A stretch of 64,000 nt of DNA. Source: Clostridia bacterium (GTDB lineage Bacteria > Bacillota > Clostridia > TANB77 > RGIG9151). The notes below the pieces were generated by a model. That model saw nothing but the letters and a program-made list of their open reading frames with translations, was not told the origin of the DNA and searched no databases. Positions 2,901-64,000 of the stretch are shown piece by piece (the stretch's first letter is position 1; each line of letters begins with the position of its first letter). Where the stretch lies: NCBI GenBank assembly GCA_017934955.1, contig JAGBIO010000011.1, positions 39,515-103,514 on the forward strand. Reading direction: 5' to 3'. The translations under genes were made by a program, and so were the position numbers.

Positions 2901-3209
2901 TTAATTATTTAAAGTTATATTATATGTTCCATTAAATAATAATAAAAAACCAATGATTAATAATATAACAGCTATACAGCCTATAACGGGATTTTTTTCT
3001 CCTAATGGTCTATCATCTCTGCCACAATGTGGACAAATTGTAGCCTTAACAGATATAGGTTTATTACAAGATTGACATTGTTTCATATTTTCCTGCGATA
3101 TATTAGATATATTATTATCAGAAGAGTTATTTTCAACAAGCTTGTTGCCACATTTATCACAGAATATTGAATTATTTCTTAATTCATTGCCACATTTACT
3201 ACAAAACAT
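2901..3209 (-). CDS. Double zinc-ribbon membrane protein (102 aa)
   Basis: The N-terminus MFCSKCGNEL..FCDKCGNKL and a second CQSC...CPHCG give two CxxC pairs. The C-terminus has a hydrophobic TM segment (VIGCIAVILLIIGFLLLF). Confidence 0.7.
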   Translation of the reverse strand: MFCSKCGNELRNNSIFCDKCGNKLVENNSSDNNISNISQENMKQCQSCNKPISVKATICPHCGRDDRPLGEKNPVIGCIAVILLIIGFLLLFNGTYNITLNN

Positions 3210-3225
3210 TTTGTCATCTCCTTAA

Positions 3226-4806: not shown

Positions 4807-4950
4807 TTCTATGTGGCAAGGACTGAAAAAATGTTTGACAAATCCTATTATTTAGTGATAAACTAAATAAGTTATTCTGTTTTTTTCCTGAAAAGGAGGT
4901 TTATTTTTTCCTTGGTCGTAGAACAGCAGAACATATAGGAGGTTTGACGT

Positions 4951-5337
4951 ATGGAAAAGAAGATTGCGGAGCATAATCGGGCAGTTCGGGAGATGATTGA
5001 GGAACGTCACAAATTGGAGTTGGCGATCAACAAGAAACTTCTGGAAGAGGGCGATGTGCTGAAGTTTGAGGAGATTATGGCGTTTATGAAGCATCATGGC
5101 TTGAAGCGGATCTGGTTTAGAGACGGAATGGGCATAAGCAAGGTTTATGGCGGTGAGCCGTTTGATTTTGACGGCTTGAGTGTCGATCTTAGGGCTACCG
5201 GGACCATAAATTCGCGGCGCCTGCTGGATTTGCTTTCTAAAGCGGCTGAAGCTGAATACGCTGAGCGTTATCGCTATACCGACGATGGGGATTTCCTGTC
5301 GAGAATCGTCATTTATACGTTTAAGGAAGAAACCTGA
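4951..5337 (+). CDS. Hypothetical protein (128 aa), GC-richer orphan
   Basis: ATG sits 9 nt after TAGGAGG and is followed by a clean terminator. No motif recognised. Confidence 0.6.
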   Translation: MEKKIAEHNRAVREMIEERHKLELAINKKLLEEGDVLKFEEIMAFMKHHGLKRIWFRDGMGISKVYGGEPFDFDGLSVDLRATGTINSRRLLDLLSKAAEAEYAERYRYTDDGDFLSRIVIYTFKEET

Positions 5338-9077: not shown

Positions 9078-9179
9078 TGTCTTAGATAACGTTTCATCTC
9101 TTTTTTTGAAAACTAAAGAAAATATAGGAAAATGCCGATAAATGATTTGTAAAATGGTTTCTTTATGAGGAGGAAAAGG

Positions 9180-11477
9180 ATGAAAAAGATATTATCGGCT
9201 TTATTTAGCGTATTTATGCTAATGAGTGTTTGTTATGGTTATACTTTAAAAGTAGACGATGGAAGGGGAATGACGACAAGCCAAGTTGATTCGGGAAATA
9301 CCGTATTTGTTGGTTTACCCGGAGCAGAGAATTCAAACTATGTCGTAAGAGAGGGAGATGTCACGTTAAGTGATGTTTCCGGCGAGAGTGGCATGAAGCA
9401 ATTCGTTATGCCGAGTGAAAACGTATGGATTACGTTAGTGCGTCCGGGAGACGTGAGAAAGTTAATTTTAAAGAATAATTTAGGAAAAAATGAAACTTCT
9501 TATCGGGAAATCGGCAGTACGGTAGAGGTTATTGCAGAGTATATAGAGGAATATGTATTTCAATATTGGACATCGGAAGGAATTACCTTAACAGATACTT
9601 CTGCGGAAAATTTAAGTTTTACGATGCCGATTGATCATGTAACGTTAACGGCGAACTATGTGTATGCATCAAAACCAATTACGGCAACGGCGGGGGCGAA
9701 CGGTAGCATTAGTCCGAGTGGAACGATAGAAGTAAATTGGGGAGAAAGTCAGACATATACAATGATACCTGATGCGAATTATTTGGTATCGGATGTTGTG
9801 GTGGATGGAGTGAGCGTAGGAGCAGTAACCAATTATACATTTACGAATGTAAAGGAAGAACATACGATTCATGTAGAGTTTGTAAGACCGACCTATACAA
9901 TAACAGCGAGTGCAGGAACCGGCGGAAGTATTAGTCCGAGTGGGACAACAACGGTAAACCGTGGTGAGAGTAAATCTTACACTGTTACTGCAAATTCGGG
10001 ATATGCAATAAGTGGTGTAACGGTAGATGGAACAAGTATTGGAGTAGCTACAAAGGTTTCACTTTCCAATATTACAGAAAATCATACAATTACAGTAAAC
10101 TTTGAGCAAATACCTGATACAAGCTTAGGCTATAATGGTGGTTCACAAACTTATACGGTACCTGCACGAGGTATTTATAAATTAGAAGTATGGGGCGCCG
10201 GAGGTTCTAATAATGGTGGCGGTGGAGGTTCCGGAGGATATGGTTGTGGTTACGCAATTTTAGAAAAAGGGCAGAAATTGTATGTTACAATAGGTGGAGC
10301 TGGCTCGGGAACCCAATATAATGGTGGAGGACCTCGTGGAGGAGGCGGAGCTACTCATATTGCGTCTGTGAGTGGAACTTTAACTGCTATAGGTGCATCT
10401 AATCTTTCTAAGATATATATTATTGCCGGAGGAGGCGGCGGTGGTGGTACTAAAACAGAAAGTTGGGGTTTAGTACGTACATATACAGGAGGTTCCGGAG
10501 GCGGTGAATCCGGAAGCAACGGAGGCGGTGATCCTTCATATGGCATAGCTTCTGGTGGTACACAGACTTCAGGTGCAGGTTTTGGTGGTGCAACAAGTGG
10601 AAGCGGCGGCGGAGGTCTTTATGGCGGTGTATCCGGTGGTCAAACCGGTGGCGGCGGAAGTGGATATATAGGAGGTGTTCCTTCCTTCACTTATAACGGA
10701 ACTACGTATAGTCCTTCTTGGAGTACGGGAGGAGGCGCTGGTGCACATGCTAATGGTTCAGCCAAAATTTCGTTTATAATGTCAATATCTGATGATTTTA
10801 ACTTTATAGCTCCAACACCATATGTATGTAGTGGTGGTGTACAAACCTATACGGCGCCTGTTGCAGGTTTATATAAATTAGAAGCATTTGGTGCTGGCGG
10901 TGGTGCATCCGGTGGTGCCGGTGGTTACAGCGTAGGATATGTACAATTGTCTGCAAATCAAACTCTTTATATAGTTGTTGGCGGTTCGGGAGGATCTTCA
11001 CGTTATAATGGTGGAGGAAGTCCGGGCGGTGGTGGAGCTACCCATATTGCGACTGTTAGTGGTACATTGGCTCAACTTGGAAATGTGTCTAATGTTCTGT
11101 TAATTGCCGGTGGCGGTGGCGGCGGTGCTACCAAAACAGAAAGTTGGGGTTTAGTACGTACATATACCGGAGGAGCCGGTGGAGGTAGTAGTGGTACGGC
11201 AGGTGATTTAGATCCGTCATATACGCAAGGTGTAGGTGGTACATCAAGTACCGGATATGCTTTTGGTCAAGGCGGAGATGGTTCCGGCGGAGGCGGAAGC
11301 GGTCTTTATGGTGGTACCGGCGGTGGTGGAGCTGCTGCCGGAGGCGGTGGAAGTGGATATATTGGTGGAGTTCCGGCAATTACGTATGGTGGAACAACTT
11401 ATAGTCCATCAACAACCGTTGGCGGTGGTTCTTCAAACAATTCAGATGGAAAGGTAATTATTTCCTTTGTTGGTTAA
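9180..11477 (+). CDS. Secreted multi-domain glycine-rich protein, paralog 1 (N-terminal family domain, two InlB-B-repeat-like modules, two ALK/LTK-type glycine-rich modules)
   Basis: Start moved to ATG 9180, 6 nt after GAGGAGG (MKKILSALFSVFMLMSVCYG signal peptide). Two modules match the divergent InlB B-repeat type ([13 protein letters not shown]...HTIHVEF). Two ~215-aa modules read YTVPARGIYKLEVWGAGG..GGYG.GY..L.KGQKLYV.IGG...GGGGATHIA...IIAGGGGGG...GGGGSGYIGG...NG.AKISF, which resembles Pfam Gly_rich (PF12810; identifier from memory). Confidence 0.85.
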   Translation: MKKILSALFSVFMLMSVCYGYTLKVDDGRGMTTSQVDSGNTVFVGLPGAENSNYVVREGDVTLSDVSGESGMKQFVMPSENVWITLVRPGDVRKLILKNNLGKNETSYREIGSTVEVIAEYIEEYVFQYWTSEGITLTDTSAENLSFTMPIDHVTLTANYVYASKPITATAGANGSISPSGTIEVNWGESQTYTMIPDANYLVSDVVVDGVSVGAVTNYTFTNVKEEHTIHVEFVRPTYTITASAGTGGSISPSGTTTVNRGESKSYTVTANSGYAISGVTVDGTSIGVATKVSLSNITENHTITVNFEQIPDTSLGYNGGSQTYTVPARGIYKLEVWGAGGSNNGGGGGSGGYGCGYAILEKGQKLYVTIGGAGSGTQYNGGGPRGGGGATHIASVSGTLTAIGASNLSKIYIIAGGGGGGGTKTESWGLVRTYTGGSGGGESGSNGGGDPSYGIASGGTQTSGAGFGGATSGSGGGGLYGGVSGGQTGGGGSGYIGGVPSFTYNGTTYSPSWSTGGGAGAHANGSAKISFIMSISDDFNFIAPTPYVCSGGVQTYTAPVAGLYKLEAFGAGGGASGGAGGYSVGYVQLSANQTLYIVVGGSGGSSRYNGGGSPGGGGATHIATVSGTLAQLGNVSNVLLIAGGGGGGATKTESWGLVRTYTGGAGGGSSGTAGDLDPSYTQGVGGTSSTGYAFGQGGDGSGGGGSGLYGGTGGGGAAAGGGGSGYIGGVPAITYGGTTYSPSTTVGGGSSNNSDGKVIISFVG

Positions 11478-11586
11478 AGATTTTACCGTATCATTTTTAG
11501 AGTTCTAAGCCAATCGAAGGGGTAAAAAATTTGTCTAAAGAAAAAACAATATTTGCCGATAAAACAAAAGAAGGGTGGTGGATTCC

Positions 11587-11679
11587 ATGAACCAATTACA
11601 GAAAATGAAACAAAAAGCAGAAAATATTTGTAACAGTAGTATGGTAAAAATTGTAATTGGGGGGGGGGTACACTATTAG
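11587..11679 (+). CDS. Small ORF interrupted by a G10 tract (30 aa as read; a +1 or -2 slip gives a ~53-aa ORF ending at 11744 inside the terminator)
   Basis: ATG sits 7 nt after GGTGG. Translation is MNQLQKMKQKAENICNSSMVKIVIGGGVHY. The G run is 11659-11668. The alternative frame after the G run reads TLLDKKNKEKIIKKNGSSLKSEWL and is conserved at the second locus (62625). It is below the ORF-track size cutoff. Confidence 0.45.
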   Translation: MNQLQKMKQKAENICNSSMVKIVIGGGVHY

Positions 11680-11715
11680 ATAAAAAGAATAAAGAAAAAA
11701 TAATAAAGAAGAATG

Positions 11716-11761
11716 GAAGTAGTTTAAAGTCAGAGTGGCTTTAAACTACTTCTTTTTGTTT
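11716..11761 (+). terminator. Strong rho-independent terminator 40 nt upstream of glycine-rich paralog 2
   Basis: GAAGTAGTTTAAAG-TCAGAGTGG-CTTTAAACTACTTC plus TTTTTGTTT, a 14-bp perfect stem. Confidence 0.8.
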
Positions 11762-11801
11762 AAAAAATCGAATTTGCAGGGATTACAATAGGAGGAAGAG
11801 G

Positions 11802-14072
11802 ATGAAGAGAGTATTATCGGTATTGTTTGGAATTATGATGTTGTTGAGTATTTCTTATGGCTACACGTTTAAGGTAGACGATGGAAGAAGTATGATTGTG
11901 AATGAAATGAATGCGGGAAATACTGTATTTGTTGGATTACCCGGAGCAGAGAATTCAAACTATGTCGTAAGAGAGGGAGATGTCACGTTAAGTGATGTTT
12001 CCGGCGAGAGTGGCATGAAGCAATTCGTTATGCCGAGTGAAAACGTGTGGATTACGTTAGTGCGTCCGGGAGACGTGAGAAAGTTAATTTTAAAGAATAA
12101 TTTAGGAAAAAATGAAACTTCTTATCGGGAAATCGGCAGTACGGTAGAGGTTATTGCAGAGTATATAGAGGAATATCGGTTTAAATCCTGGACAGCGGAA
12201 GGAATTACGTTATCAGATACTTCTGCAGAAAATTTAAGTTTTACGATGCCGGTTGATCATGTGACGTTAACGGCAAATTATGAATATGCAAGTCATACGG
12301 TTACCGCAACGGCAGGCGCAAACGGAAGTATTAGTCCGAGCGGAAGTTTGGAAATAAATCATGGAACAAATCGTACTTATACAATGATACCGAATACGGG
12401 GTATATCGTAGCGGATGTATTGGTAGATGGAGCAAGTGTGGGTGCAGTAACGAGTTATACATTTGAAAATATAACAGAAGATCATACTATTTCGGTAACG
12501 TTCACAGTAGGAACTTATACAGTAACATTTGATAATCAAAGTGCGACAACCGCGGGAACAACCAGCTTAACAATAACATACGGGGCGACGATGCCGAATA
12601 TAACGGTACCGACAAAGACCGGATATACATTTTATGGTTATTATACTGCTACAAACGGTGGTGGAACAAAGTATTATAATTCAGATGGAAGAAGTTTAAC
12701 GACAATGGATTTAGGTCAAGATACCACGTTGTATGCTTATTGGCAGCAGAATGCAGTACCGGCGTTTACCTATACCGGAACGTATTCGACTTCAATGGAT
12801 AGTACCTATTGGTATATTTATTGTAAATCATCCGGCACATTAACATTTAATAGCGGTATGCTGGTAGACGCATGTATCGTTGGTGGTGGTGCCGGAGGTG
12901 GCAGCGGAGATCCAGGCAAAGGTGGCGGTGGCGGAAAAGTAGTAAATCGGTTAAACGCTTCCCTTACAGCCGGGACAGGCTATGGTATTACGGTTGGTGC
13001 CGGAGGAGCAGTAAATACTGCCGGAGGTAGTTCCTCAGCATTTGGCACAACCGCTGCCGGAGGTTCAAAGGATGGCGGAGGATCTACTGGAAGGGCAGGT
13101 CCTGCAGGTTCATATGCTTTTGATAGTAGCAGCTATAGCCGCTATGGCGGAGGCGGCGGAGGCGGCGGAAGCGGAGCAGCCGGAGGAGCCGGAGGCGCAG
13201 GTGGCGGTGGTAAAGGAGGCCAAGGTGCACATTTTTATATCAGTGTCGCTAATGCCGTTGCCGGTGGAACGAATACCGGAGGTGGTGGCGGTGGTCATGG
13301 TGGTGGCCACACGTGGAAAGATGATGATGGATATAGTTATGCTGGTGGTGGTTCAGCAGCTGCCGGTGGAAGTGGTATTGTAATCATCCGTGGTAAATTT
13401 AATCAATCGGATGTTCTTCCATATTCCTTTACCGGAAACTCGATGACCGCAAAAGATAATAATTATTGGTATGTATATTTGAAATCATCCGGAACACTTA
13501 CTTTTAGTAAGAATCTGACGGTAAATGCATGTATCGTTGGCGGTGGTGCCGGAGGTGGCGGCGGAGATCCGGGAAAAGGTGGCGGTGGAGGAACCGTAAC
13601 AAACCGTTCCAATATTTCTGTTACAACCGGCACGAATTATACGATTACAATCGGAGCCGGAGGAGCAGTTGATACTGCCGGAGGCAGTTCATCTGCATTT
13701 GGTACAACGGCTGCCGGAGGCGCTGTAAATAGCGGTGGAGCTGCAAATGGCGGAGCTGGAACTGCTGGACCGTATGCATTTGGAGATAGCAGTTTGAGTC
13801 GATATGGCGGTTCCGGCGGAGGTGGCGGAAGCGGAAGTAATGCAGGAGCCGGAGGAGCCGGAGGTGCTGGTGGCGGCGGTAAAGGCGCTCAAGGTGCACA
13901 ATATTCTAACTGGGGATACAATGCCGTTGCCGGAGGAACGAATACCGGAGGCGGAGGCGGAGGCCATGGTGGTAGCCATACATGGAACGATAGTGACGGA
14001 TGGAGTTATAGTCCCGGTGGTGCAGCAGCTGCCGGCGGAAGCGGTGTTGTTATCATTCGTGTTGCTTATTAA
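11802..14072 (+). CDS. Secreted multi-domain glycine-rich protein, paralog 2 (same N-terminus, different C-terminal glycine-rich module type)
   Basis: Signal peptide, then ~150 aa almost identical to paralog 1. One InlB-B-repeat-like module. One Listeria-Bacteroides (Flg_new-type) repeat, [22 protein letters not shown]. Two ~215-aa modules read [24 protein letters not shown]...ITx[21 protein letters not shown]...GGSG(I/V)VIIR, a second and distinct glycine-rich family (Gly_rich_2-like; name from memory). Confidence 0.85.
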
Positions 14073-14268: not shown

Positions 14269-16104
14269 ATGTGTGGAATTGCAGGTTGGATTGATTTTAA
14301 GCGGAATTTAATGCAAGAGGAGAATATTCTTCAAAAGATGGCATCCAATTTAATTCGAAGGGGACCGGATGAGGGAGATTGTTATTGTAGTGAGAATGTG
14401 GCATTGATTCACAGGAGGTTAATTGTGATTGATCCGGAAAACGGGAAACAGCCGATGCGGTTTCGGGATTATGGAAAAGATTTGGTGTTCGTATATAACG
14501 GTGAGTTATATAATACCGAAGAAGTGCGTGGACAGCTGATAGAAAAAGGGTATCTTTTTTCAGGACATTCGGATACCGAAGTGTTGTTAAAGGCGTTTGC
14601 TTGTTGGGGAGAAGAGTGTTTGGAGAAGTTAAACGGAATTTATGCGTTTGCAATTTGGGATAATGTTAATAAAACATTGACGTTGGCACGAGATCGAATG
14701 GGTGTGAAGCCGTTATTTTATTATCCGTATCATGGTGGAATTTTATTTGCGTCGGAATTAAAGGCGCTTTTAGTAAATCCTTTGGTGAAACATGAGATTG
14801 AGGAAGATGGATTACATGAAATTTTTTCCATCGGGCCGGGGAGAACGCCGGGATGTGGTGTGATAAAAGGTGTAAAAGAAGTGAAACCCGGGTGCTTTTT
14901 GCGTTTTTCGCAGCAGGGGATTGAGGATCGTCAATATTGGAAATTAGAGGCGAAGGAACATAAAGAAAATTTGGCGGAAACGATAGAACATACGCGTTTT
15001 TTGATAAAGGATGCGATTACGAAACAGTTAGTGTCGGATGTGCCGCTTTGCTGTTTTTTGTCCGGTGGATTGGATTCGAGTATTATTTCGAAATTGGCGG
15101 GCTTGTCTTATCGGGAGAAAAATTTAGGAAAATTGACGACGTACTCGATTGATTATGAGGATAACGATAAATATTTTGTAAAAACGAAATTTCAGCCGAA
15201 TTCCGATAGTGAGTTTATTGATGCAATGGTGAAAGATATCGGTTCGGAGCATAGAAAAGTGATATTAAATAATGAAAAGTTGGCAGAGGCTTTGGATATT
15301 GCAACAGGAGCGCGAGATTTGCCGGGAATGGCGGATATTGATTCTTCTTTGGTACTGTTTTGCGAGGAGATTAAGAAGGATTTTACCGTTGCATTATCCG
15401 GAGAATGCGCGGATGAAGTGTTTGCGGGGTATCCGTGGTACCATGACCAAGAAATTTTATTTGATGAGACGTTTCCGTGGTCGCGTTCTTTGGCGTTAAG
15501 AAAGTTTATTTTGAAGGAGAATGTTTTACCGGAAATGGAGGAATACGTACATTACTGCTATGAGGATACGGTGAAGGAGACGGATCACTTAGAGGGGGAG
15601 AGTCGGTTAAATGCACGGATGCGAGAGATGTTTATGCTGAATATAAATTGGTTTATGCAGACGTTATTGGATCGAAAAGATCGAATGAGTATGTATAACG
15701 GGTTAGAGGTAAGGGTTCCGTTTTGTGACCATCGATTGGTGGAGTATTCTTTTAATATGCCTTGGGAATATAAGGCGCTTGAGGGCAGAGAAAAGGGAAT
15801 TATTCGAGAAGCGGTAAAGGATTTATTGCCGGAGGAGATTGTTTGGAGGAAGAAAAGTCCTTATCCGAAGACACATCATCCGGTGTATATGAAATTAGTG
15901 AGTGAAAAAGTTCGGGAAATTTTCAGAAAGAAAGAGTCGTTTATCGGGAATTTTGTGAAGGAGGATGCGATTGAGGAAATTATTGCGAATCCCGAGAAAA
16001 TTGCAGTGCCGTGGTATGGTCAATTGATGCGTGCTCCGCAAATGCTTGCGTATTTGATTCAAGTCGAGAAGTGGGCGGAAATTTATCAAATTCAGGTGGT
16101 TTGA
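14269..16104 (+). CDS. asnB: Asparagine synthase (glutamine-hydrolysing)
   Basis: Start moved to ATG 14269 after AAGGAGGAG. The N-terminus MCGIAGW carries the Ntn amidotransferase Cys2. The SGGLDSS PP-loop is present. Length is 611 aa. Confidence 0.9.
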   Translation: MCGIAGWIDFKRNLMQEENILQKMASNLIRRGPDEGDCYCSENVALIHRRLIVIDPENGKQPMRFRDYGKDLVFVYNGELYNTEEVRGQLIEKGYLFSGHSDTEVLLKAFACWGEECLEKLNGIYAFAIWDNVNKTLTLARDRMGVKPLFYYPYHGGILFASELKALLVNPLVKHEIEEDGLHEIFSIGPGRTPGCGVIKGVKEVKPGCFLRFSQQGIEDRQYWKLEAKEHKENLAETIEHTRFLIKDAITKQLVSDVPLCCFLSGGLDSSIISKLAGLSYREKNLGKLTTYSIDYEDNDKYFVKTKFQPNSDSEFIDAMVKDIGSEHRKVILNNEKLAEALDIATGARDLPGMADIDSSLVLFCEEIKKDFTVALSGECADEVFAGYPWYHDQEILFDETFPWSRSLALRKFILKENVLPEMEEYVHYCYEDTVKETDHLEGESRLNARMREMFMLNINWFMQTLLDRKDRMSMYNGLEVRVPFCDHRLVEYSFNMPWEYKALEGREKGIIREAVKDLLPEEIVWRKKSPYPKTHHPVYMKLVSEKVREIFRKKESFIGNFVKEDAIEEIIANPEKIAVPWYGQLMRAPQMLAYLIQVEKWAEIYQIQVV

Positions 16105-16389
16105 TTAGGATTCGGTTTCTTGGGTATAAACTTCCAAGTAGCTTTCGAAATCGTTAAGAAGTTCTATAGGACTAATATTTAAGCATTTTGCAATCGCACA
16201 TAATTCAAAATCGGTGACGGTTCGTTTGTTGGCTTCGATATGGTAAAGAGATTGGGCGGAAATATCTACGCCGAGGAGCATTAACTTTAGAGATAATTTT
16301 TCGTAAGAGAGTTTTTGAGCGAGGCGATGTTTTTTGATTTGCTTGTTGCTGATATTAAGAAAATATTTATTGTTTCGATTGTTTTTCAT
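16105..16389 (-). CDS. XRE-family HTH transcriptional regulator (94 aa)
   Basis: IKKHRLAQKLSYEKLSLKLMLLGVDISAQSLYHIEANKRTVTDFELCAIAKCLNISPIELL is a Cro/C1-type HTH. Confidence 0.8.
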   Translation of the reverse strand: MKNNRNNKYFLNISNKQIKKHRLAQKLSYEKLSLKLMLLGVDISAQSLYHIEANKRTVTDFELCAIAKCLNISPIELLNDFESYLEVYTQETES

Positions 16390-16641: not shown

Positions 16642-19569
16642 TTACTCTAAGATAATAAGAATTTCGTATTCAGAATCATCTCCGTCTGTATCGAAGTACA
16701 TAATCATTCTGCCTTCTAAGTCGTCCATATTGCTCATTTGCGGAGCGTCCGGATCGCTTAAGTCATAAACGATTACATCGTCGGATACGCTGATCGGCTC
16801 GATTGCTTCACCGTCTAATTTCTTGAATACTACTAAGTTTCCTAAGATTTCGTCAACTACTAACTGGTCACGGTCTGCGATACCGTCCGAAATAAATTCG
16901 TCGTAGTTATCGTCATCTAAGAATGCGGACATGTCGATCTTAATATCGGTTTCGCCTGTTTGAACAAACTTGTTGTTTTCGATATCATATCTTACCAAGT
17001 CGCCTTCTTCACCGAAGAGAACCGTAGAAATATCAGTCTGAACGTCTGCTACTTCGTAAGTCATTTCTTCGCCTTCCGTGTAAACCGTTACCATCCATAC
17101 CTTATCTCCATCGGAGTTTGTGCTTACTTCGATGTTTGTGATGATGCCGTATTTATCTTCTGTTGCTTGATAGTTGGAGCCGTCATCGTCAATGATGAGG
17201 TATTTGATGATTCTGGAGTTTGCGTTGTAGATTGCAAGCGGTGTTGTACCTCTTAACATATTGCTGTTTTCATCGTTGTTGTTTACTAAGATGTTCCATC
17301 CGCTTACTACTTCAATGTTGTCTGCATGCTGGTTCAAGATAACTGTCTTATCGGTTACATAGTAAGTCTTTCCGTCAGCATCCTTGAAGGATTTTGTAGA
17401 ATTCTTTACTACGTTGTCTTCATCTTCGATGGTAAGTTTGGATAATACGTCAGAATCATTCATTTCTACAAGGCTTGGAGCGTTAGATTCATTTTCTAAT
17501 TTAATTAGGTTGTTTACTTTTACGGTTCTTCCATCGCTATCGGTTGAGAATTTAACAAGAGTTCCCTTGGTAAATTCGTCAATTAATGCGTCGGTCCAAT
17601 CTTCACCCGGAGAAGGTTCTACCTTTACGATATCACCGTCTTTTACTTGTTTGAATTGAGCCTTAGAATCACCGCTGATCTTGTAAGCTACTTTATTTCC
17701 TTTTTCATCAACGATTTGTAATCTTAAATACGGATCATCGTCATCGTCGTACATGATGTCAGAGGCAACAGGTGTTCTTCCAACGATTCCGTATTGACCT
17801 GCTAAGGTTACTTCGCTTTCGCCCATTGCTAATACATAGGCGCCGTTACTGTCTAAGTGTAAGGTTACTTCGTTATCGATTAATGTGGATACATCCGAAG
17901 ACATCGCTACTACTTCGTCTAAGTCATTTTCTGTTGATAACATTGCGTTTGCACCTTTTTCATAAACAGTTCCGTCGATTCTTAAGCCGTAAGAACTTGT
18001 AATCTTATCTAACATACCGGTTACTGTATTGTCAGTAATCGTAATTAATCTGATATTACCGTCTGTTTTCTTGCTTACCATGATAACATTACCGATTTCG
18101 ATGTCTTCTGCTTTCGCTGCTTTTCCGTTTTTCTTTACGATAATGTTGCTGTCTTCATCATCAACGTCATCAATCTTGAACTGTCTTGTTCCGTTTAAGT
18201 CAACAACTGTGCTGTCGGAACGGATATTCTTTGCTGTGAATTGAATGAATTCGTAATCGCTGTCTGAATCGTCTTCTGTTTCAATGGTGAAGGTTCCTGC
18301 GATAGCAAGTTGTAAAGATGTGATCTTGTTAGAAGAATTTAATAGCATATTCGCCTTGATAAGCGGATCATCTAAAGATTCTTTCAATTCTGCTACATAA
18401 GCCAATTTTGTCTTTACATCTGCATTATCAATCGTTTCTGATGCTGTGATCGCGTCAGTAATCTCGATGCTGTTGATATAGATTTTTGCATCACTTAAAA
18501 CCGTGTATTCTTTTCCATCTACTTTTACTTTAGAAGAAGATGCTTTGATGGTTTCCAATTTACTGTTGCTCATTGCTTCATCTGTTGCTTTAATATAAGA
18601 AACAGTATTGTCTTTTCCGAAGAAAATAGTTACTTCTTTTCCGAGTAAGTCAGATGCGTCTACATCGGAAGGAAGAATGATAACAATTCTGTCTCCGGAA
18701 TCGTCACTCTTGTAAACTTTATCTTTTGATGGAGTAGAAGTTGTTACTTTTAACATATCTGCAATGTTTTCTAATTCGATCTCGATTTGGTTTGCTTCTA
18801 ATTGGTGATTTGTTTCAGGTGTGCTTACTACTAAGATTTCCTCAAAGTATTTTGCTTCCATCTTTCCGTGTTCGTTCTGATATACGAAGTCCGGATATTT
18901 GATTTCTAATAATGTTTTTCCTAAATTTCCGTAAGTGATTTCTCCAAGATCGTTAAATCCTGTTTCACCCCATTTATTTTGAAGGAGTGTTTCCCATGCC
19001 ATAATGAAAACGTCGCCACGAAGTGCGCTTGATTTTCCATCGACACCGGTGATATCTTTTGTAATACCAAGTTGTGCTGCTTTTGACATATAGTTGTTCG
19101 GCCATGTTCCGCCGGACTTGTCAACAACAGGTTTTAATCCTAAAGCGTTTACCAACATGGTTACTGCTTCAGAATAAGAAACTTCTTGACTTGGTCTGAA
19201 TGTTCCGTCAGGGTATCCTGCGAAAACATTTTCATTTGCCGCAATGTTGATATATCCCGTATACCATTCATTTACCTTAACGTCGCTAAACGGAGAAGGA
19301 GTTGTTTTAGAAAGTTCTGCGGCATCCTGCAAACCTAATACGAACGTAATTACGGTTGCAAGCTCTGCTCTTGTAATGGTAGTTTCCGGTCTAAAGGTTC
19401 CATCTTCGTAACCTTTAATGGTACCAAGAGCAACAAGTTTTACAATTGCTTCTTCATACTTTGTGCCTTCGATATCGCTGGTATTTGCGAAAGCAATACC
19501 CGGAAGAATCAAAGAACATAGCATCGTGAAGACAACTGCAAGTGAAATGAATTTTCTCATTTTCTTCAT
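16642..19569 (-). CDS. S-layer / cell-wall protein with three N-terminal SLH domains
   Basis: Start moved to ATG 19569, 8 nt after GGAGGG (MKKMRKFISLAVVFTMLCSLILPGIAFA signal peptide). Three SLH repeats are present (..GYEDGTFRPETTITRAELA.., ..FSDVKVNEWYTGYI..GYPDGTFRPSQEVSYSEAV.., ..WPNNYMSKAAQLGI..). The long Asp/Glu-rich C-terminal region has no known motif. Confidence 0.88.
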   Translation of the reverse strand: MKKMRKFISLAVVFTMLCSLILPGIAFANTSDIEGTKYEEAIVKLVALGTIKGYEDGTFRPETTITRAELATVITFVLGLQDAAELSKTTPSPFSDVKVNEWYTGYINIAANENVFAGYPDGTFRPSQEVSYSEAVTMLVNALGLKPVVDKSGGTWPNNYMSKAAQLGITKDITGVDGKSSALRGDVFIMAWETLLQNKWGETGFNDLGEITYGNLGKTLLEIKYPDFVYQNEHGKMEAKYFEEILVVSTPETNHQLEANQIEIELENIADMLKVTTSTPSKDKVYKSDDSGDRIVIILPSDVDASDLLGKEVTIFFGKDNTVSYIKATDEAMSNSKLETIKASSSKVKVDGKEYTVLSDAKIYINSIEITDAITASETIDNADVKTKLAYVAELKESLDDPLIKANMLLNSSNKITSLQLAIAGTFTIETEDDSDSDYEFIQFTAKNIRSDSTVVDLNGTRQFKIDDVDDEDSNIIVKKNGKAAKAEDIEIGNVIMVSKKTDGNIRLITITDNTVTGMLDKITSSYGLRIDGTVYEKGANAMLSTENDLDEVVAMSSDVSTLIDNEVTLHLDSNGAYVLAMGESEVTLAGQYGIVGRTPVASDIMYDDDDDPYLRLQIVDEKGNKVAYKISGDSKAQFKQVKDGDIVKVEPSPGEDWTDALIDEFTKGTLVKFSTDSDGRTVKVNNLIKLENESNAPSLVEMNDSDVLSKLTIEDEDNVVKNSTKSFKDADGKTYYVTDKTVILNQHADNIEVVSGWNILVNNNDENSNMLRGTTPLAIYNANSRIIKYLIIDDDGSNYQATEDKYGIITNIEVSTNSDGDKVWMVTVYTEGEEMTYEVADVQTDISTVLFGEEGDLVRYDIENNKFVQTGETDIKIDMSAFLDDDNYDEFISDGIADRDQLVVDEILGNLVVFKKLDGEAIEPISVSDDVIVYDLSDPDAPQMSNMDDLEGRMIMYFDTDGDDSEYEILIILE

Positions 19570-19714
19570 TGTTAAACCCTCCATATAAAGATTTTTTGTA
19601 GGGCGTCTCTCGCCCTTACGAGTTTTATTTTAGCATTGGTGAAAGTTCAAGTCTATGCAAAGATTCTGGGAATAAAGCCAGTTCCAGGTAGTTACGGGGG
19701 AGGGGGAAGGTAGT

Positions 19715-20079
19715 GGACAGCATGAATGCTATCCGTACGGAGATAGGCACAAATTTGTAGGGACAGCATTCATGCTGTCCGGAGATGAGACACAAAGGAT
19801 ATCTTTATTATCATATAATCTTATTTTTCTGTTGTTATTTAGTGGTTTTGTGGTACAATAACAGGTGGACACAATAAATTGTGTCCGTACGGATTGAAGA
19901 AGGAAAAACAATCAAATAAAAAGGCACAAACATTGTAGGGACACAATTCATTGTGTCCACCAAATAGGCAGTAACGTAAAAAAGAACAAACATTGTAGGG
20001 ACACAATTCATTGTGTCCACCAAATAGGCAGTAACATAAAAAAAGCACAAACAATGTAGGGACAGCATTCATGCTGTCC
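19715..20079. repeat. REP cluster (6 copies), including a 3 x 60-nt tandem array
   Basis: Copies lie at 19715-19738, 19757-19780, 19867-19890, 19935-19958, 19995-20018 and 20056-20079. The last three sit in the 60-nt unit GCACAAACATT-GTAGGGACA..TGTCC-ACCAAATAGGCAGTAACGTAAAAAA. Confidence 0.9.
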
Positions 20080-27217: not shown

Positions 27218-27477
27218 GCACAAATGCTGTCCACAGAAAAGGCGGAAAGCAGGACAGCATGAATGCTGTCCCTACAATGGTTGTAGCATCATTATAAAAA
27301 GCTATAGTCTGACCTGTAACACATTTGAGTTACAATTCAGAATATATTCTCTACAATAATGGCACAATCCTTGTAGGGACACAATTTATTGTGTCCATGA
27401 AATAGGCAGGCGTTAAAATTAGGACACAATGAATTGTGTCCGTACATCATTATAGGCAAATATGTATGACCTGTAAC
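27218..27477. repeat. Two composite REP elements adjacent to each other, with their TGTAAC-end motifs forming an inverted pair
   Basis: A truncated REP half lies at 27224-27232. REPs lie at 27252-27275, 27373-27396 and 27422-27445. AGTCTGACCTGTAAC (27306-27320) faces GTTACAATTCAGA (27329-27341). A further GTATGACCTGTAAC lies at 27464-27477. Confidence 0.85.
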
Positions 27478-30213: not shown

Positions 30214-30320
30214 GGACACCATGAATGGTGTCCGTACGGATAGAGAGAATTTTGTGTGGACAGCATGAATGATGACATACGGATAGACAGAATTTTGTAG
30301 GGACAGCATTTATGCTGTCC
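30214..30320. repeat. REP cluster (3 copies; first is the CACCAT/ATGGTG class, second is decayed)
   Basis: 30214-30237 is GGACACCATGAATGGTGTCC-GTAC. 30258-30280 is degenerate. 30297-30320 is GTAG-GGACAGCATTTATGCTGTCC. Confidence 0.85.
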
Positions 30321-32387: not shown

Positions 32388-32601
32388 GGACACAATAAAG
32401 TGTGTCCGTACAGATACGAAGAGGATTTATTTAAGAAGATGGTGTAATAATGGACAGCATGAATGCTGTCCGTACGGATAGGAAGAGGATTTATTTAAGA
32501 AGATGGTGTAATAATGGACAGCATGAATGCTGTCCGTACAGAAACTTAGCAGAAATTTAAAAACAAGCACAACCCATGTAGGGACACAATTTATTGTGTC
32601 C
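32388..32601. repeat. REP cluster (4 copies, including a 64-nt tandem duplication) between the ferredoxin and sensory hydrogenase genes
   Basis: Copies lie at 32388-32411, 32452-32475, 32516-32539 and 32578-32601. The unit GTCCGTAC-GGATAGGAAGAGGATTTATTTAAGAAGATGGTGTAATAATGGACAGC is repeated. Confidence 0.9.
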
Positions 32602-38775: not shown

Positions 38776-38902
38776 GGCACAAACATTGTAGGGACAGCAT
38801 TCGTGCTGTCCACAGAAAAGGCAGACATTAGAATTAGGACACAATGAATTGTGTCCCTACAGCGTTTGTGTCCTTTTTATAATTTTAAGTCTGACCTGTA
38901 AC
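38776..38902. repeat. Complete composite REP element
   Basis: The GGCACAAAC flank is followed by the REP 38788-38811 (CAGCAT class, one arm mismatch), the linker ACAGAAAAGGCAGA, the REP 38837-38860 (CACAAT class, ..CTAC) and AGTCTGACCTGTAAC at 38888-38902. Confidence 0.9.
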
Positions 38903-52797: not shown

Positions 52798-52885
52798 GGA
52801 CACTTTGAGGTGTCTCGGGATTTGGACACAATAAATTGTGTCCGTACGGAGATGCAACATTGTAGGGACACAATTTATTGTGTCC
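52798..52885. repeat. REP doublet plus a decayed copy (rpsH-rplF spacer)
   Basis: A decayed GGACACTTTGAGGTGTCT lies at 52798-52816. REPs lie at 52824-52847 and 52862-52885. Confidence 0.9.
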
Positions 52886-52943
52886 GTAGAAGGAGCACTT
52901 CGTAATAAACCATTACAAGGTAACATTATAAGGGGTGAACAAA

Positions 52944-62164: not shown

Positions 62165-62399
62165 GTTGTATAGGAAAAATCGAAGATTTTGCCTATACAA
62201 CAACGAAAGTATCATAGTGTTTGCCCGTAGGGCAACATGAGTAAATCAAAAATCTTTGATTTTTAGATTTACACTTTTGTTCTATATGCTTCTTACGTTC
62301 CTTTTTGTTTTATAATAGGATAAAAAAATAGTATGGAAATAGTTTACATCAAAAATCATACACTTCCTAATTGACTAAAATACGCCATTAAAAAACGTT

Positions 62400-62511
62400 G
62401 TAGGGACACCATTCATTGTGTCCTAAACCTACCGTCTGCCAATTTCTCGGACACCATAAATGGTGTCCCTACAAGGATTGATGCATTATTTACGTACATT
62501 TGCATTGTAAC
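62400..62511. repeat. Composite REP element (doublet plus decayed TGTAAC end); left copy has hybrid arms
   Basis: 62400-62423 is GTAG-GGACACCAT-TC-ATTGTGTCC (arms from two classes, one mismatch). 62449-62472 is GGACACCATAAATGGTGTCC-CTAC. TGCATTGTAAC lies at 62501-62511. Confidence 0.88.
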
Positions 62512-62624
62512 TTATTTACTATAGAACCAATTATTGTTAGACTATTTTTTTACCCTGAATTTTTTACTCTACTAAAGAAAAGTATTCCTTTTGCCGATAA
62601 AGTAGCCAAAGGGTGGTGGACGCA

Positions 62625-62717
62625 ATGAACCGATTACAAAAAATAAATAAAACAGCAAGAATTAACTATAACGCTTGTGTGGTAAAATTTGTAATTGGGG
62701 GGGACACTATTAGATAG
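62625..62717 (+). CDS. Second copy of the small ORF interrupted by a poly-G tract (G7; 30 aa as read; a -1 slip gives a ~51-aa ORF ending at 62781 inside the terminator)
   Basis: ATG follows GGTGGTGG. Translation is MNRLQKINKTARINYNACVVKFVIGGDTIR. The G run is 62697-62703. The alternative frame after the G run is TLLDRKNKEKRIMNKEESSLKSGWL. Confidence 0.45.
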   Translation: MNRLQKINKTARINYNACVVKFVIGGDTIR

Positions 62718-62753
62718 AAAGAATAAAGAAAAAAGAATAATGAATAAAGAAGA

Positions 62754-62797
62754 AAGTAGTTTAAAGTCGGGATGGCTTTAGACTACTTCTTTTTGTT
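62754..62797 (+). terminator. Rho-independent terminator 38 nt upstream of glycine-rich-family paralog 3
   Basis: AAGTAGTTTAAAG-TCGGGATGG-CTTTAGACTACTT plus CTTTTTGTTT. It is homologous to 11716-11761, with one U-G change in the stem. Confidence 0.75.
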
Positions 62798-62834
62798 TAA
62801 AAATCGCAGGAAATATATAAGGGAGGCAGAGAAA

Positions 62835-64000
62835 ATGAGAAGGGCAGTAAGTTTAGTAATTTCGTTTGTATTGTTGTTAAGTACATCCTTTGGATATACG
62901 TTAACCATCAATACTGAACGAGGAATAACGACAAGAGAGGTAGAAGCGGAGAAAAATATTACGGTAGGGTTATCGGATCGCGCTCCGGCGAAGTATGTTG
63001 TAAATTCCGAAAATGTTGTATTAAGAATATTCGGAAATCGCAGACAATTAGTAATGCCGACAGGAAATGTAGATATTTCTGTTAATCGGTTGTATACGGT
63101 AAACTTTAACAGCAACGGGGGAAGTACGGTCAAAAGTATAAAAGTTGCAGTAGGAGATCTTTATGGGACATTACCGGTACCGACGAAAAGCGGGTATGCG
63201 TTTGACGGATGGTATATGGAAGAATGGTTAGTAACAAAAATAACAGATACAACAGTCGTAGAAACAGCAAGTGACCATACGTTATATGCAAAATGGAAAG
63301 AAGCAACAGCGGAGAATTTGATGGAAGTAGGAGACTATGTAACGTATTATCCGACAATTACCACTTGTGACTTAACGACAATCACAGGAGTTGAACAGAC
63401 CGAATTTGATCCATCGGCAACAACGACATGGAGAGTGTTAAGCAATGATGGAACAACGGTAGAGTTGGTTAGCGCAGATAGTGTAGGAGATTTAACATTA
63501 GGAAAAGATTCAGAACAAGCAACAGACGGAACCTTTAGTAGTGGAACCGAAGCGGATATGGAAGTAGCAAAATCCAATTATGCAAGGGCGGTAAAAATAT
63601 TAAATGAAATCAGCGAAGCGTATGTAAATCCAACACTCGCAACAGGAGGAAGAGGATTAGGAACTGTAGTAGGAAGCAGTATGGAAGAAATCGACACAAC
63701 GACATATCCACTAACGTGGGATTATACATATCCACAAGGTTATACATATACAGAAGGAAATAACGGGTTCCCACATACAGACACTTACTACAGTACCGAT
63801 GTAAATGTATTAATGAACAATAGCATGTTGCACAGTAGCGGTTATGTGTGGCTCGCTTCCCGTAACTTGGGCCTCGCCAGCAGCAACTCGGACTTCCGCG
63901 TGCGCAGCATGATCACGAGCGGCGACATCTACAACTACTATACCTTGTTCAGCTCGCACTCGGATGGTAGCGCGATCACGTATTCCAACACGAACGGGGT
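62835..64000 (+). CDS. Secreted protein, paralog 3 of the family (same N-terminal domain type, Flg_new-type repeat, different downstream domain); runs off the window end
   Basis: ATG 62835 follows GGGAGG. The signal peptide is MRRAVSLVISFVLLLSTSFG. YTLTINTERGITTREVEAEKNITVGLSDRAPAKYVV.. parallels paralogs 1 and 2. YTVNFNSNGGS..GYAFDGWY..LYAKW is a Listeria-Bacteroides repeat. The frame is open to 64000 (checked codon by codon). It is absent from the ORF track because it is truncated. Confidence 0.8.
   Translation, partial: MRRAVSLVISFVLLLSTSFGYTLTINTERGITTREVEAEKNITVGLSDRAPAKYVVNSENVVLRIFGNRRQLVMPTGNVDISVNRLYTVNFNSNGGSTVKSIKVAVGDLYGTLPVPTKSGYAFDGWYMEEWLVTKITDTTVVETASDHTLYAKWKEATAENLMEVGDYVTYYPTITTCDLTTITGVEQTEFDPSATTTWRVLSNDGTTVELVSADSVGDLTLGKDSEQATDGTFSSGTEADMEVAKSNYARAVKILNEISEAYVNPTLATGGRGLGTVVGSSMEEIDTTTYPLTWDYTYPQGYTYTEGNNGFPHTDTYYSTDVNVLMNNSMLHSSGYVWLASRNLGLASSNSDFRVRSMITSGDIYNYYTLFSSHSDGSAITYSNTNG

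Follow-up and report, generated by a model that had tools for sequence, protein, structure and literature searches.

Candidate phase-variable leader-ORF/terminator modules upstream of surface-protein genes in uncultured rumen Clostridia

INTRODUCTION

A switch in which the length of a translated leader decides expression has been shown experimentally in the pil1 and pil3 loci of Streptococcus gallolyticus, where a leader open reading frame (ORF) and a terminator produce phase variation (PMC3894217). Expression there is low if the leader ORF ends 28 nt or more ahead of the terminator hairpin, and high if the stop is adjacent to the hairpin or within it (PMC3894217). In the literature that we searched for phase variation by leader-peptide length and a terminator, this was the one experimental case. 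A related logic operates in the trp, his, and pyrBI leaders of Escherichia coli, in which a peptide translated close behind RNA polymerase decides whether a terminator forms. These attenuators sense charged tRNA or nucleoside triphosphates through the speed of the ribosome or the polymerase, and trp and his use alternative hairpins. In Clostridioides difficile, the cwpV switch reportedly relies on recombinase-driven DNA inversion, with terminator formation in the 5′ leader setting expression and no leader-ORF translation. The cwpV product is a phase-variable clostridial cell-surface protein (Emerson et al. 2009, PMC2784873).

Here we describe modules found in a 64,000-nt stretch of DNA from an uncultured rumen Clostridia bacterium (the window, meaning the whole stretch analyzed). 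They resemble the streptococcal switch part by part. Promoter, ribosome binding site (RBS) and repeat-bearing leader ORF, intrinsic terminator, and surface-structure gene follow in the same order; a frame shift moves the stop codon from about 30 to 40 nt upstream to a position before or inside the hairpin; neither system has an alternative antiterminator fold; each genome carries several loci; and the host is a gut- or rumen-associated Gram-positive bacterium. The sequences of ORF and terminator are unrelated, however, so the streptococcal system is an analogue and not a homologue. The repeat in S. gallolyticus consists of 13 to 23 GCAGA pentamers, whereas here it is a G tract of 5 to 11 nt encoding 2 to 4 Gly residues. 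The targets there are sortase pili, whereas here they are secreted proteins with InlB-B/Flg_new repeats and glycine-rich sequence. Unlike the streptococcal loci, the modules carry a sigma-28/SigD-like promoter and an extra conserved helix, P1 (probably with a second, P0), around the 5′ half of the ORF. The streptococcal switch is experimental, whereas the modules are known from sequence alone.

As in cwpV, a surface protein would be controlled through an intrinsic terminator between promoter and gene, but by the repeat slippage that we propose rather than by site-specific inversion. The leader ORF extends across the attenuator, as that of pyrBI does, and the role of the 1:2 pause hairpin of classical attenuators could fall to P1, which also includes early codons. 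Unlike trp, his, and pyrBI, the modules would respond to a repeat whose changes in frame are inherited, and they have no conserved alternative hairpin. With the poly-G/C contingency loci of Campylobacter, Neisseria, and Haemophilus, the modules have in common a G tract of 7 to 11 nt associated with a surface-protein family, a tract that is a local indel hotspot, and paralogs in different states; the contingency loci carry it within the coding sequence of the regulated gene or in the promoter spacer, whereas here it belongs to a separate upstream ORF and would act by way of transcription termination. The modules are most likely a non-homologous version of a known but rare leader-ORF/terminator switch.

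RESULTS

The window holds two modules (positions 11536-11761 and 62573-62798; all features are on the + strand), each with a promoter box, RBS, ATG ORF, G tract, and strong terminator. They are 81% identical in alignment. In module 1, the RBS GGGTGGTGG (11573..11581) lies 5 nt upstream of the ATG of a leader ORF that, as read, spans 11587..11679 and encodes 30 amino acids ending in VIGGGVHY, with a TAG at 11677-11679. The ORF of module 2, with its RBS at 62611-62619, spans 62625..62717 as read, again 30 amino acids, ending in VIGGDTIR before a TAG at 62715-62717. These short, putatively OFF forms stop 36 and 35 nt, respectively, upstream of the terminator 5′ arm. The G tract is the sole cause of frame loss in both. 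Beyond it a second frame, the one used by the family of homologous ORFs described below, is open: in module 1 it encodes TLLDKKNKEKIIKKNGSSLKSEWL (11670..11744) and ends at a TAA at 11742-11744, and in module 2 it encodes TLLDRKNKEKRIMNKEESSLKSGWL (62704..62781) and ends at a TAG at 62779-62781. Both stops lie within the 3′ arm of the terminator. A sequence-only reading of the window had laid out this anatomy upstream of paralogs 2 and 3, and on recheck its coordinates and sequences matched base for base, as did the two short stops, the open second frame ending in the terminator, the 3-nt indel that separates the copies without breaking the extended frame, and the spacers of 11 and 7 nt between ATT and ACA.

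The openness of the family frame can be judged in these two copies, which are the only modules ascertained without reference to an ORF. After the tract in module 1, this frame contains no stop, against four and three in the other two; in the 3′ half of both window copies, the other frames contain three to four stops each. The shuffle probability of such openness is about 0.05 to 0.09 per half and about 0.004 jointly for one copy.

We then considered the promoter. The box TGCCGATAAA, which the sequence-only reading had listed as shared, proved real and conserved, and what had gone unrecognized is that, by its sequence, it represents the −10 element of a promoter of the sigma-28/SigD type. A motif scan places this promoter at 11536..11562 in module 1 (TAAA-N15-GCCGATAA), at 62573..62600 in module 2 (TAAA-N16-GCCGATAA), and at 9114..9141 directly upstream of paralog 1 (9165-11477), a gene without a leader ORF or terminator module that serves as an unswitched comparison. 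The sequence cTAAAG-N15/16-GCCGATAA at 11536, 62573, and 9114 agrees with the sigma-28/SigD consensus of TAAA, a 13- to 16-nt spacer, and GCCGATAW, published as TAAAGTTT-n11-GCCGATAA (PMC2859248) and as TAAA-N13-16-GCCGATAW (PMC3865298). In 64 kb, TAAA-N14-17-GMCGATA has three matches against 0.48 expected, and they lie only upstream of the three paralogous surface genes. GCCGATA or GACGATA is kept in the nine modules long enough to include the promoter, and also in a truncated one (L043). The sigma factor would presumably belong to this class; in the window and related loci, we saw no sigD/fliA, flagellar, or sigma genes.

The putatively controlled gene of module 1 is paralog 2 (11802..14072), which encodes a secreted protein of 756 amino acids with InlB-B/Flg_new repeats and a glycine-rich domain; that of module 2 is paralog 3 (62835..64000), which encodes a Flg_new repeat protein, leaves the window, and is 415 amino acids long in the full contig (L041). 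From the T-run of module 1 to the ATG of paralog 2 there are 41 nt, with no conserved promoter between them. Across the modules, the 10 to 40 nt from T-run to downstream RBS contain no conserved −35/−10 elements, by a consensus scan that is blind to a promoter overlapping the terminator. When the first 330 amino acids of paralog 2 were used as a protein query, unrelated InlB-B-repeat proteins dominated the matches and no informative relatives emerged; a profile of its 96-aa N-terminal domain matched only the protein of locus L003. Exact-protein look-ups of paralog 2 and of asnB (two alternative starts) returned no record.

A profile search of 1.84 billion representative proteins returned nine clusters of in-frame homologous ORFs, 41 to 65 amino acids long. 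The full set comprises ten distinct modules, all of which have a promoter, an RBS, an ORF, a G tract, and a terminator. Both the further copies and the extended frame in them, to which the sequence-only reading had looked for support, were thus found, although all modules outside the window came to light through an in-frame ORF and the in-frame fraction is therefore biased. All ten are co-linear and have one orientation. In every one, a purine/GTG-rich RBS lies 5 to 9 nt upstream of the ATG and about 17 to 36 nt downstream of the −10 element. The module is always directly upstream of another gene's RBS, with a gap of at most 40 nt except at a repeat or IS insertion. That gene encodes a signal peptide in nine of the ten (it is IS-interrupted in L045); the exception is L049, whose downstream gene is not obviously a family surface protein. 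One copy, L044, is a third module from the same assembly as the window, with an in-frame G11 tract. It also has REP-like repeats in common with the window, up to 98% identical, and very probably comes from the same genome.

Searches that did not start from an ORF added nothing to this set. With a module profile, nhmmer found no further copies of this kind in the loci examined. A DNA-pattern scan of metagenome contigs (GGTAAAANNTGTAATT-N5-15-ACACTA) gave 36 loci (L005-L040), all chance matches without a G tract. The contigs of GTDB species-representative genomes matched neither the N-terminal domain profile of the large protein nor the module DNA pattern, and viral contigs did not match the DNA pattern.

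The position of the stop codon relative to the terminator is the same in kind throughout the family. In all ten modules, translation in the family frame would end no earlier than 1 nt before the 5′ arm of the terminator and no further than 29 nt into the hairpin, and both other frames stop 26 to 43 nt upstream of the arm. The stop-distance rule of S. gallolyticus thus fits ten of ten.

On balance, we favor the reading that each module is a stochastic on/off switch, made of a leader ORF and an attenuator, upstream of surface genes in uncultured rumen Clostridia. The sigma-28/SigD-type promoter would start a transcript whose first feature is the small ORF, with its good RBS and a centrally placed G tract. 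The strong intrinsic terminator would follow after about 50 nt and, 10 to 40 nt beyond it, the RBS of the gene for a secreted repeat or glycine-rich surface protein. With the tract in the family frame, the lead ribosome would reach or enter the hairpin (from 1 nt before the 5′ arm to 29 nt inside). A ribosome there would block the hairpin, and RNA polymerase would read through into the surface gene (ON). Replication slippage by plus or minus 1 nt would make the ribosome stop 26 to 43 nt upstream, so that the hairpin would form and transcription would terminate (OFF or low). The window modules, with G10 and G7, would then be in the short, OFF configuration, and L044, with G11, in the long, ON configuration; paralog 1 would have the promoter without the switch. 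We infer from the sequences that the ORF is translated, that the tract slips in vivo, and that antitermination depends on the ribosome. Transcription-translation coupling has been reported to be loose in some Firmicutes, which would weaken a pure occlusion mechanism. The earlier suggestion that a slip-prone tract and the long form gate read-through withstood each of our checks, any of which might have overturned it, and gains from the in-frame homologues, L044, tract lengths that differ among copies, the stop geometry, and the streptococcal precedent (PMC3894217); the small-protein reading that came with it fits less well.

The leader peptide itself argues for this distinction. Entropy by codon position in the leader ORF is 0.62, 0.78, and 0.72. 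The conserved blocks are conserved at third positions as well and coincide with the RNA helices and the terminator arm; the SSLKSxWL part of the extended frame is the terminator 5′ arm. The C terminus ranges from KR to SSLKSEWL and is set only by where the stop falls relative to the hairpin. The frame had been described as conserved at the protein level, but the codon positions do not behave as in a constrained protein, and the conservation is that of nucleotides, or RNA, and of frame openness. This pattern shows no purifying selection on the peptide; openness and end point of the frame alone are kept, in line with a regulatory leader. An open frame with unconstrained amino acids is typical of an ORF whose translation counts and whose product does not. 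Because the peptide is hydrophilic and basic, we rejected both a type I toxin and a signal peptide.

These data bear on the possibility that the ORF encodes a free-standing small basic protein with its own terminator. The tract would then switch the protein, or would have inactivated it, and the large gene would be expressed through leakage or an unrecognized promoter, independently of the leader frame. Such a protein would account for in-frame ORFs in nine clusters, for recurring residues such as MVKxVIGGGT and KREKRIDKR, for the good RBS, and for a strong terminator immediately downstream. It would not be expected to show codon-position variability without purifying selection, with conserved blocks that are RNA helices and a terminator arm, nor a C terminus dictated only by the position of the stop relative to the hairpin. 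Moreover, Pfam gave no family for the leader peptide, and the module always directly precedes the RBS of another gene, usually one with a signal peptide. We consider this explanation unlikely. A putatively slip-prone tract would set the frame of a small ORF, as the sequence-only reading had it for a phase-variable small protein, but the ORF is better called a regulatory leader.

The switch that we favor needs a terminator, and the RNA offers one. A terminator-like scan found an 18-pair stem at 11715-11753 followed by TTTTTGTTT in module 1 (terminator 11715..11761), and module 2 has a stem and T-run at 62752..62798. Across the family, the stems are 16 to 18 bp, followed by a T-run, with zero matches to the pattern expected in shuffles. 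Pairing holds in 99.4% of cells across 11 sequences, with compensatory changes at three pairs. RNAalifold predicted no competing conserved antiterminator fold. The strong stem had been recognized from the window alone; a second helix, P1, had not. In P1, as predicted by RNAalifold, codons 2 to 5 pair with bases just upstream of the G tract: CCAATTACA (11592..11600) with TGTAATTGG (11652..11660, extending into the first two Gs of the tract) in module 1, and CCGATTACA (62630..62638, with a G-U wobble in place of an A-U pair) with TGTAATTGG (62690..62698) in module 2. P1 appears in the single-sequence minimum free energy fold of six of seven modules, and its pairing holds in 96% of cells, with one compensatory A-U to U-A change (in L044) and one-sided changes that are all wobble compatible. 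Its 54-nt loop is not conserved in sequence and changes in length only by multiples of 3. In addition, all ten modules show a further complementarity, which in module 1 joins the 3′ part of the RBS and the spacer to the last Gs of the tract and UACAC; this P0 helix is probably real. P1 and the probable P0 enclose the start region and the first 25 codons, and the start codon sits in an internal loop of the predicted fold. P0 and P1 would occlude the RBS and the first codons, which could mean that the ORF is poorly translated.

Two structural explanations were discarded. An invertible element of the cwpV type does not fit ten modules in one orientation whose sole inverted repeat is the 9-bp P1 pair, and the tolerance of G-U wobble in this repeat marks it as an RNA helix. 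A riboswitch does not fit the variable P1 loop and the absence of a conserved complex fold.

Alternatively, the module could be a non-coding structured leader (P0/P1 domain plus terminator) or a small RNA dependent on sigma-28, in which the ORF is incidental, the G tract is structural (internal loop and P0 strand), and a protein or RNA factor regulates in place of translation. The covariation in P1, the P0 complementarity in all ten modules, conservation at the nucleotide level that includes synonymous sites, and the start codon within an internal loop are all consistent with it. Rfam covariance models, however, had no gathering-level match in the 64 kb, and at E values up to 10 they gave only chance-level hairpins (11450-11850). 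The unconserved P1 loop nonetheless varies only by multiples of 3, both half-frames are open in the window copies (about 0.004 jointly for one copy) while other frames are rich in stops, and a non-coding leader leaves the conserved stop position relative to the terminator in all ten modules unexplained. We regard it as quite unlikely. In the switch that we favor, P1 and the probable P0 might synchronize or limit translation relative to transcription. They could serve as a pause hairpin that the first ribosome melts, in the manner of classical attenuators. They could also shut off the RBS after transcription of the tract, in which case only the pioneer ribosome coupled to the polymerase would count.

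Finally, we examined the tract itself. It is G10 in module 1 (11659..11668), a putative slipped-strand site where G11 would restore the frame, and G7 in module 2 (62697..62703), where G6 or G9 would be in frame. In both window copies, the family frame is exactly one slip away, as had been proposed, and the in-frame state of copy 1, G11 plus T, is actually present in L044. Copy 2, however, is alone among the modules in having no T after the tract, which means that its in-frame G6 state implies an earlier GGT-to-GGG change as well as a slip. The tract occupies the same codon position in all modules. Lengths vary among copies: we found G5, G6, G7, G8, G10, and G11, with spacers of 6, 7, 9, 11, and 12 nt among the ten copies, making the tract an indel hotspot. 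Some members have short or interrupted tracts (G5, G6, or GGAG8) and are in frame at the DNA level. The tracts of L047 and L048 are G5-G6; for slippage at a high rate, G7 is a short tract and G5-G6 even more so. G/C runs of 7 or more are confined to the modules in about 100 kb of related sequence. None occurs in the large genes or promoter spacers, which eliminates a classical contingency gene. Codon bias does not explain the run either: GGG, the codon used by the tract, is the rarest Gly codon of the genome (7 to 10%).

Could the out-of-frame states in the window simply be homopolymer errors or artefacts of a metagenome consensus? The true sequences would then be in frame, with no switching, and the attenuator might still be constitutive or otherwise regulated. 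The window has the same sequence as a megahit metagenome contig (ERZ28018929 k141_330398), G10 in place of G11 is a typical homopolymer miscall, and the related modules retrieved are in frame, although relatives ascertained through an ORF say nothing about error rates. Against an error, copy 2 is out of frame too, with a G7 tract well within reliable short-read length, and its missing invariant T is no simple miscount; a mixed population would itself amount to phase variation. The same G7 is present in L041, an ENA contig from the same assembly as the window. Contigs of the same locus all have identical tracts, as the exact peptide match by which they were retrieved forces them to. We think such an artefact very unlikely. 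Correction at the level of RNA or the ribosome, which would yield a fixed share of the long form and a rheostat rather than a heritable switch, is less likely still: long homopolymers such as the G10-G11 tracts present here are known slippage and frameshift sites, but several members with short or interrupted tracts (G5, G6, GGAG8) are in frame in the DNA, P1 is the sole candidate stimulatory element, and known bacterial transcriptional slippage is mostly at A/T runs.

DISCUSSION

A fuller version of the switch is possible but doubtful. In it, the modules would be multi-copy, sigma-28-driven poly-G switches in which P0/P1 opposes the start codon and the G tract and enforces coupling of polymerase and ribosome, by pausing and by limiting translation to one pioneer round. 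If three or more loci in a genome switched independently, they would vary a glycine-rich surface-protein coat in combinations and link that variation to the motility regulon. The apparent sigma-28 dependence is what would make this last connection.

In this fuller form, leader-ORF phase-variable attenuation would have arisen a second time, independently in evolution, and for the first time with a coupling device built in. A non-homologous second family, based on a mononucleotide repeat, would make the design a recurrent solution rather than a curiosity. It would also bear on how uncultured gut anaerobes program heterogeneity in their surface proteins. The conserved P1/P0 domain is not described for the streptococcal system and could provide a testable handle on ribosome-polymerase coupling in Firmicutes. 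Leader-ORF switches of this kind escape standard screens for contingency loci, which inspect repeats within the regulated gene or immediately ahead of it. Gene callers, for their part, miss the small leader ORF or call it in its in-frame state only.

Leader modules upstream of the surface-protein genes

Paralogs 1 to 3, the three large genes of the window (9165-11477, 11802-14072 and 62835 onward), each specify a protein with a signal peptide and InlB-B/Flg_new repeats; two of the three additionally contain glycine-rich domains. They sit in the ileS-asnB interval and downstream of rplQ; the remaining neighbors are ordinary housekeeping genes. Paralogs 1 and 2 are in tandem, with 84% identity across the first ~165 aa (9165-9670, 11802-12300), including a nearly identical 76-aa stretch, followed by divergent repeat and glycine-rich regions (Pfam ALK_LTK_GRD versus Gly_rich_2).

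The sequence-only reading had described a module upstream of paralogs 2 and 3, and when we re-read the sequence, the description was correct to the base. Module 1 contains the box TGCCGATAAA (11554-11563), the RBS GGGTGGTGG (11573-11581), a leader ATG at 11587, a G10 tract (11659-11668) followed by T and ACAC, and a terminator consisting of an 18-pair hairpin (11715-11753) and TTTTTGTTT; the ATG of the 756-aa gene follows at 11802. Module 2 (62573-62835) has the same plan, and its tract is G7 (62697-62703). Read as they stand, the ORFs end in GGGVHY in module 1 and in GGDTIR in module 2. An alternative frame past the tract is open to stops at 11742-11744 and 62779-62781, both within the 3′ arm of the hairpin. 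The modules are 81% identical, and a 3-nt indel separates them in the extended frame.

A family of modules in metagenomes

A profile built from the two frame-restored peptides gave 2 matches among 5.8 billion proteins, and a full HMMER run against 1.84 billion representative proteins gave nine small ORF proteins of 41-65 aa. The contigs encoding them were assembled from metagenomes, of the ruminant gut and others; one protein, P0001, is annotated as belonging to a Clostridia bacterium MAG. These contigs contain eight further distinct modules (L001, L003, L043, L044, L045/L046, L047, L048 and L049), all with the same promoter type, RBS, ORF, G tract, invariant TACAC and terminator. In most of them, a gene starting with a signal peptide lies 10-40 nt downstream. 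All modules outside the window were ascertained through an in-frame ORF; the two window copies were not. We have little doubt that both the module and the family of leader ORFs exist. In L049 (463-672), the 69-aa ORF that follows the module (MFNRRMLNSLENQRINNCYF...) looks unlike the signal-peptide surface family; either the downstream gene has decayed or the module may be able to precede other genes.

ENA contig ERZ28018929 k141_330398 matches the window at 100% identity. L044, another contig of that assembly, has dispersed repeats of 25-150 nt in common with the window (up to 98% identity), so the two very probably derive from one genome. In L044, the module is in frame with G11+T, and the gene downstream encodes a 388-aa Flg_new protein with 42% identity to paralog 3. 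One genome thus seems to carry three modules, each in its own tract state (G11 in frame, G10 and G7 out of frame), and one unswitched paralog. An SLH-domain protein (11514-12812) follows the L044 surface gene, and another is encoded near the tandem pair in the window (16642-19584, minus strand).

The reading frame after the G tract determines where the leader ORF stops

We located the stop codon in all three post-tract frames of the ten modules. In 10 of 10, the stop of the frame that stays open (the family frame) falls in the range from 1 nt ahead of the terminator 5′ arm to 29 nt into the hairpin, and the two other frames stop 26-43 nt upstream of the 5′ arm. About half of the family has a TAA just ahead of the arm and peptides ending in KREKRIDKR; L048 stops inside the 5′ arm, in another phase relative to the hairpin, and the remaining members stop in the loop or 3′ arm. 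The shared C-terminal "SSLKSxWL" is thus just the terminator arm in translation and no conserved peptide. The similarity of the extended frames is poor evidence for the proposed protein-level conservation.

GGG is the rarest glycine codon of this genome (7-10%), and G or C runs of at least 7 are confined to the modules in ~100 kb (window, L044, L001 and L003). Indels in the module alignment have their hotspot at the tract, with spacers of 6, 7, 9, 11 and 12 nt; the tract is interrupted in L001 (CGGGGGGGGGG), L045 (GGAGGGGGGGG) and L047 (TGGAGAGGGGG). Copy 1 has one G fewer than the in-frame G11+T of L044. Copy 2 lacks the otherwise invariant T after the tract; its nearest in-frame state is G6, implying a synonymous GGT to GGG change and then a +1. 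A homopolymer or assembly error is conceivable for G10 but unlikely for G7.

Constraint on the RNA and on frame openness, not on the peptide sequence

Coding-type and RNA-type constraint are both visible, but the residues of the peptide are unconstrained: entropy at codon positions 1, 2 and 3 is 0.62, 0.78 and 0.72, unlike what purifying selection on a protein would leave. That the ORF encodes a free-standing small protein is a less likely alternative. The frame is nonetheless kept open. Length differences within the ORF are multiples of three. In the window copies, the shuffle probability of staying open is about 0.05-0.09 for each half-ORF, and their 3′ halves have no stops in the family frame versus 3-4 in each other frame.

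Another less likely reading is that the module is a noncoding structured leader or small RNA. In the conserved blocks (ATGAACCRATTA, ATGGTAAAA..TGTAATT, the G run, TACAC and the terminator), synonymous sites are conserved too, and much of this is explained by the terminator and a helix, P1. The terminator has 99.4% of alignment cells paired, with compensatory changes in three pairs. P1, predicted by RNAalifold, pairs CCAATTACA (codons 2-5) with TGTAATTGG, the latter extending into the tract. Of 7 sequences folded singly, 6 have P1 in the minimum-free-energy structure, and 96% of the P1 cells are paired, with all one-sided changes wobble compatible. L044 has a compensatory A-U to U-A change in P1 at the price of Ile to Asn in the peptide. 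None of 500 shuffles equaled P1 in pairing or in covariation score, a control that ignores the kinship of the sequences. All ten modules could also form a putative second helix, P0, in which the SD-AUG spacer pairs with UACAC and the adjoining 3′ end of the G tract (-7.6 to -13.3 kcal/mol). Rfam at the gathering threshold gave no matches anywhere in the window (1-64000), despite a long ribosomal-protein/rpoA cluster (~45-62 kb); r-protein leader motifs are frequent in such Firmicutes clusters. Taken together, an open frame, an unconstrained sequence and a fixed end point look like a regulatory leader ORF.

A candidate sigma-28 promoter

We infer that the box is a promoter of the sigma-28/SigD type. 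The window motif, cTAAAG-N15/16-GCCGATAA, fits the published sigma-28 consensus TAAAGTTT-n11-GCCGATAA (PMC2859248) and the B. subtilis SigD consensus applied to C. difficile, TAAA-N13-16-GCCGATAW (PMC3865298). TAAA-N14-17-GMCGATA has 3 matches in 64 kb versus 0.48 expected, precisely the sites upstream of the three paralogs. At paralog 1, the promoter lies ~25 nt ahead of the RBS without a leader module. Given the promoter placement in the modules, the leader ORF would be the first feature of a transcript starting ~17 nt upstream of its ATG. The sequence examined contains neither sigD nor flagellar genes. At L044 9930-9965, the module has the -10 element GACGATAA instead of GCCGATAA and a longer 5′ UTR of about 36 nt.

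Occlusion of the terminator as a model

In the simplest model, a ribosome completing the long frame would cover the 5′ arm, no hairpin would form, and transcription would go on (putative ON); a ribosome released 26-43 nt upstream would leave the hairpin free to form (putative OFF). The gap after the terminator leaves little room for a promoter, and RNAalifold found no conserved fold competing with the terminator. Such occlusion has been demonstrated for pil1 and pil3 of S. gallolyticus, where GCAGA repeats within the leader-peptide gene move the stop (PMC3894217). A stop 39 nt upstream of the terminator gave low expression and one within or just before it gave high expression; among isolates, stops at least 28 nt upstream were low and those adjacent to or within the hairpin were high. 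The effect is translation dependent and is lost on terminator deletion (PMC3894217). The stop geometry of our modules conforms to this rule. They are not homologous to the S. gallolyticus switch; they have an additional RNA domain and are organized as several loci per genome. Literature searches found no further described family of this switch type.

By analogy, P1/P0 may act like the pause hairpin of classical attenuators, holding polymerase until the first ribosome melts the helix; or they may close the RBS once the tract is transcribed, leaving translation to the coupled pioneer ribosome only. RNA-level recoding is a further, rather improbable possibility. Translation of the ORF, control of read-through and sigma-28 dependence are suggested by sequence logic and analogy, and we lean only slightly toward the full mechanism. 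The sequence-only reading thus stands in large part: the frame-set leader ORF reaching the terminator is borne out by the geometry in 10 of 10 modules and by precedent, and the conserved peptide is not. The modules may represent putative phase variation by tract length, whereby an uncultured organism would have a nonhomologous version of a switch type that is known but rare. We saw no convincing terminator between paralog 1 and the module 1 promoter, so transcription running on from paralog 1 may feed into the module 1 switch as well.

Repeats, insertions and mosaics at module loci

Short intergenic palindromic repeats, REP- or MITE-like, are dispersed in these contigs. The unit, TTGTAGGGACACCAT...ATGGTGTCCCTACAA, is often paired into a ~75-150-nt element. 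Copies lie in the window at 62398-62489 and near 19933-20018, 27365-27446, 30295-30320, 32577-32601, 38834-38861 and 52860-52886, in L044 at 3050-3215 and 16028-16175, and in L001 at 5189-5262; L044 and window copies are up to 98% identical. In L001, one repeat sits between the module terminator and the large-gene RBS. L045 (345-806) and L046 (345-505) are near-identical loci apart from an insertion directly after the L045 terminator T-run. At L046, the empty site, the surface gene comes directly after the module. The N-terminus encoded by the insertion (MDKNSLAHTTWECKYHLVFAPK) appears to resemble an IS200/IS605 TnpA, and such an insertion would disconnect the switch from its gene. The L001 module (4850-5330) looks mosaic: by eye, its upstream flank is close to window copy 2 (62470-62600), and by blastn, the start of its downstream gene is 81% identical to paralog 2 (11778-12073). 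This pattern suggests recombination or gene conversion among family loci.
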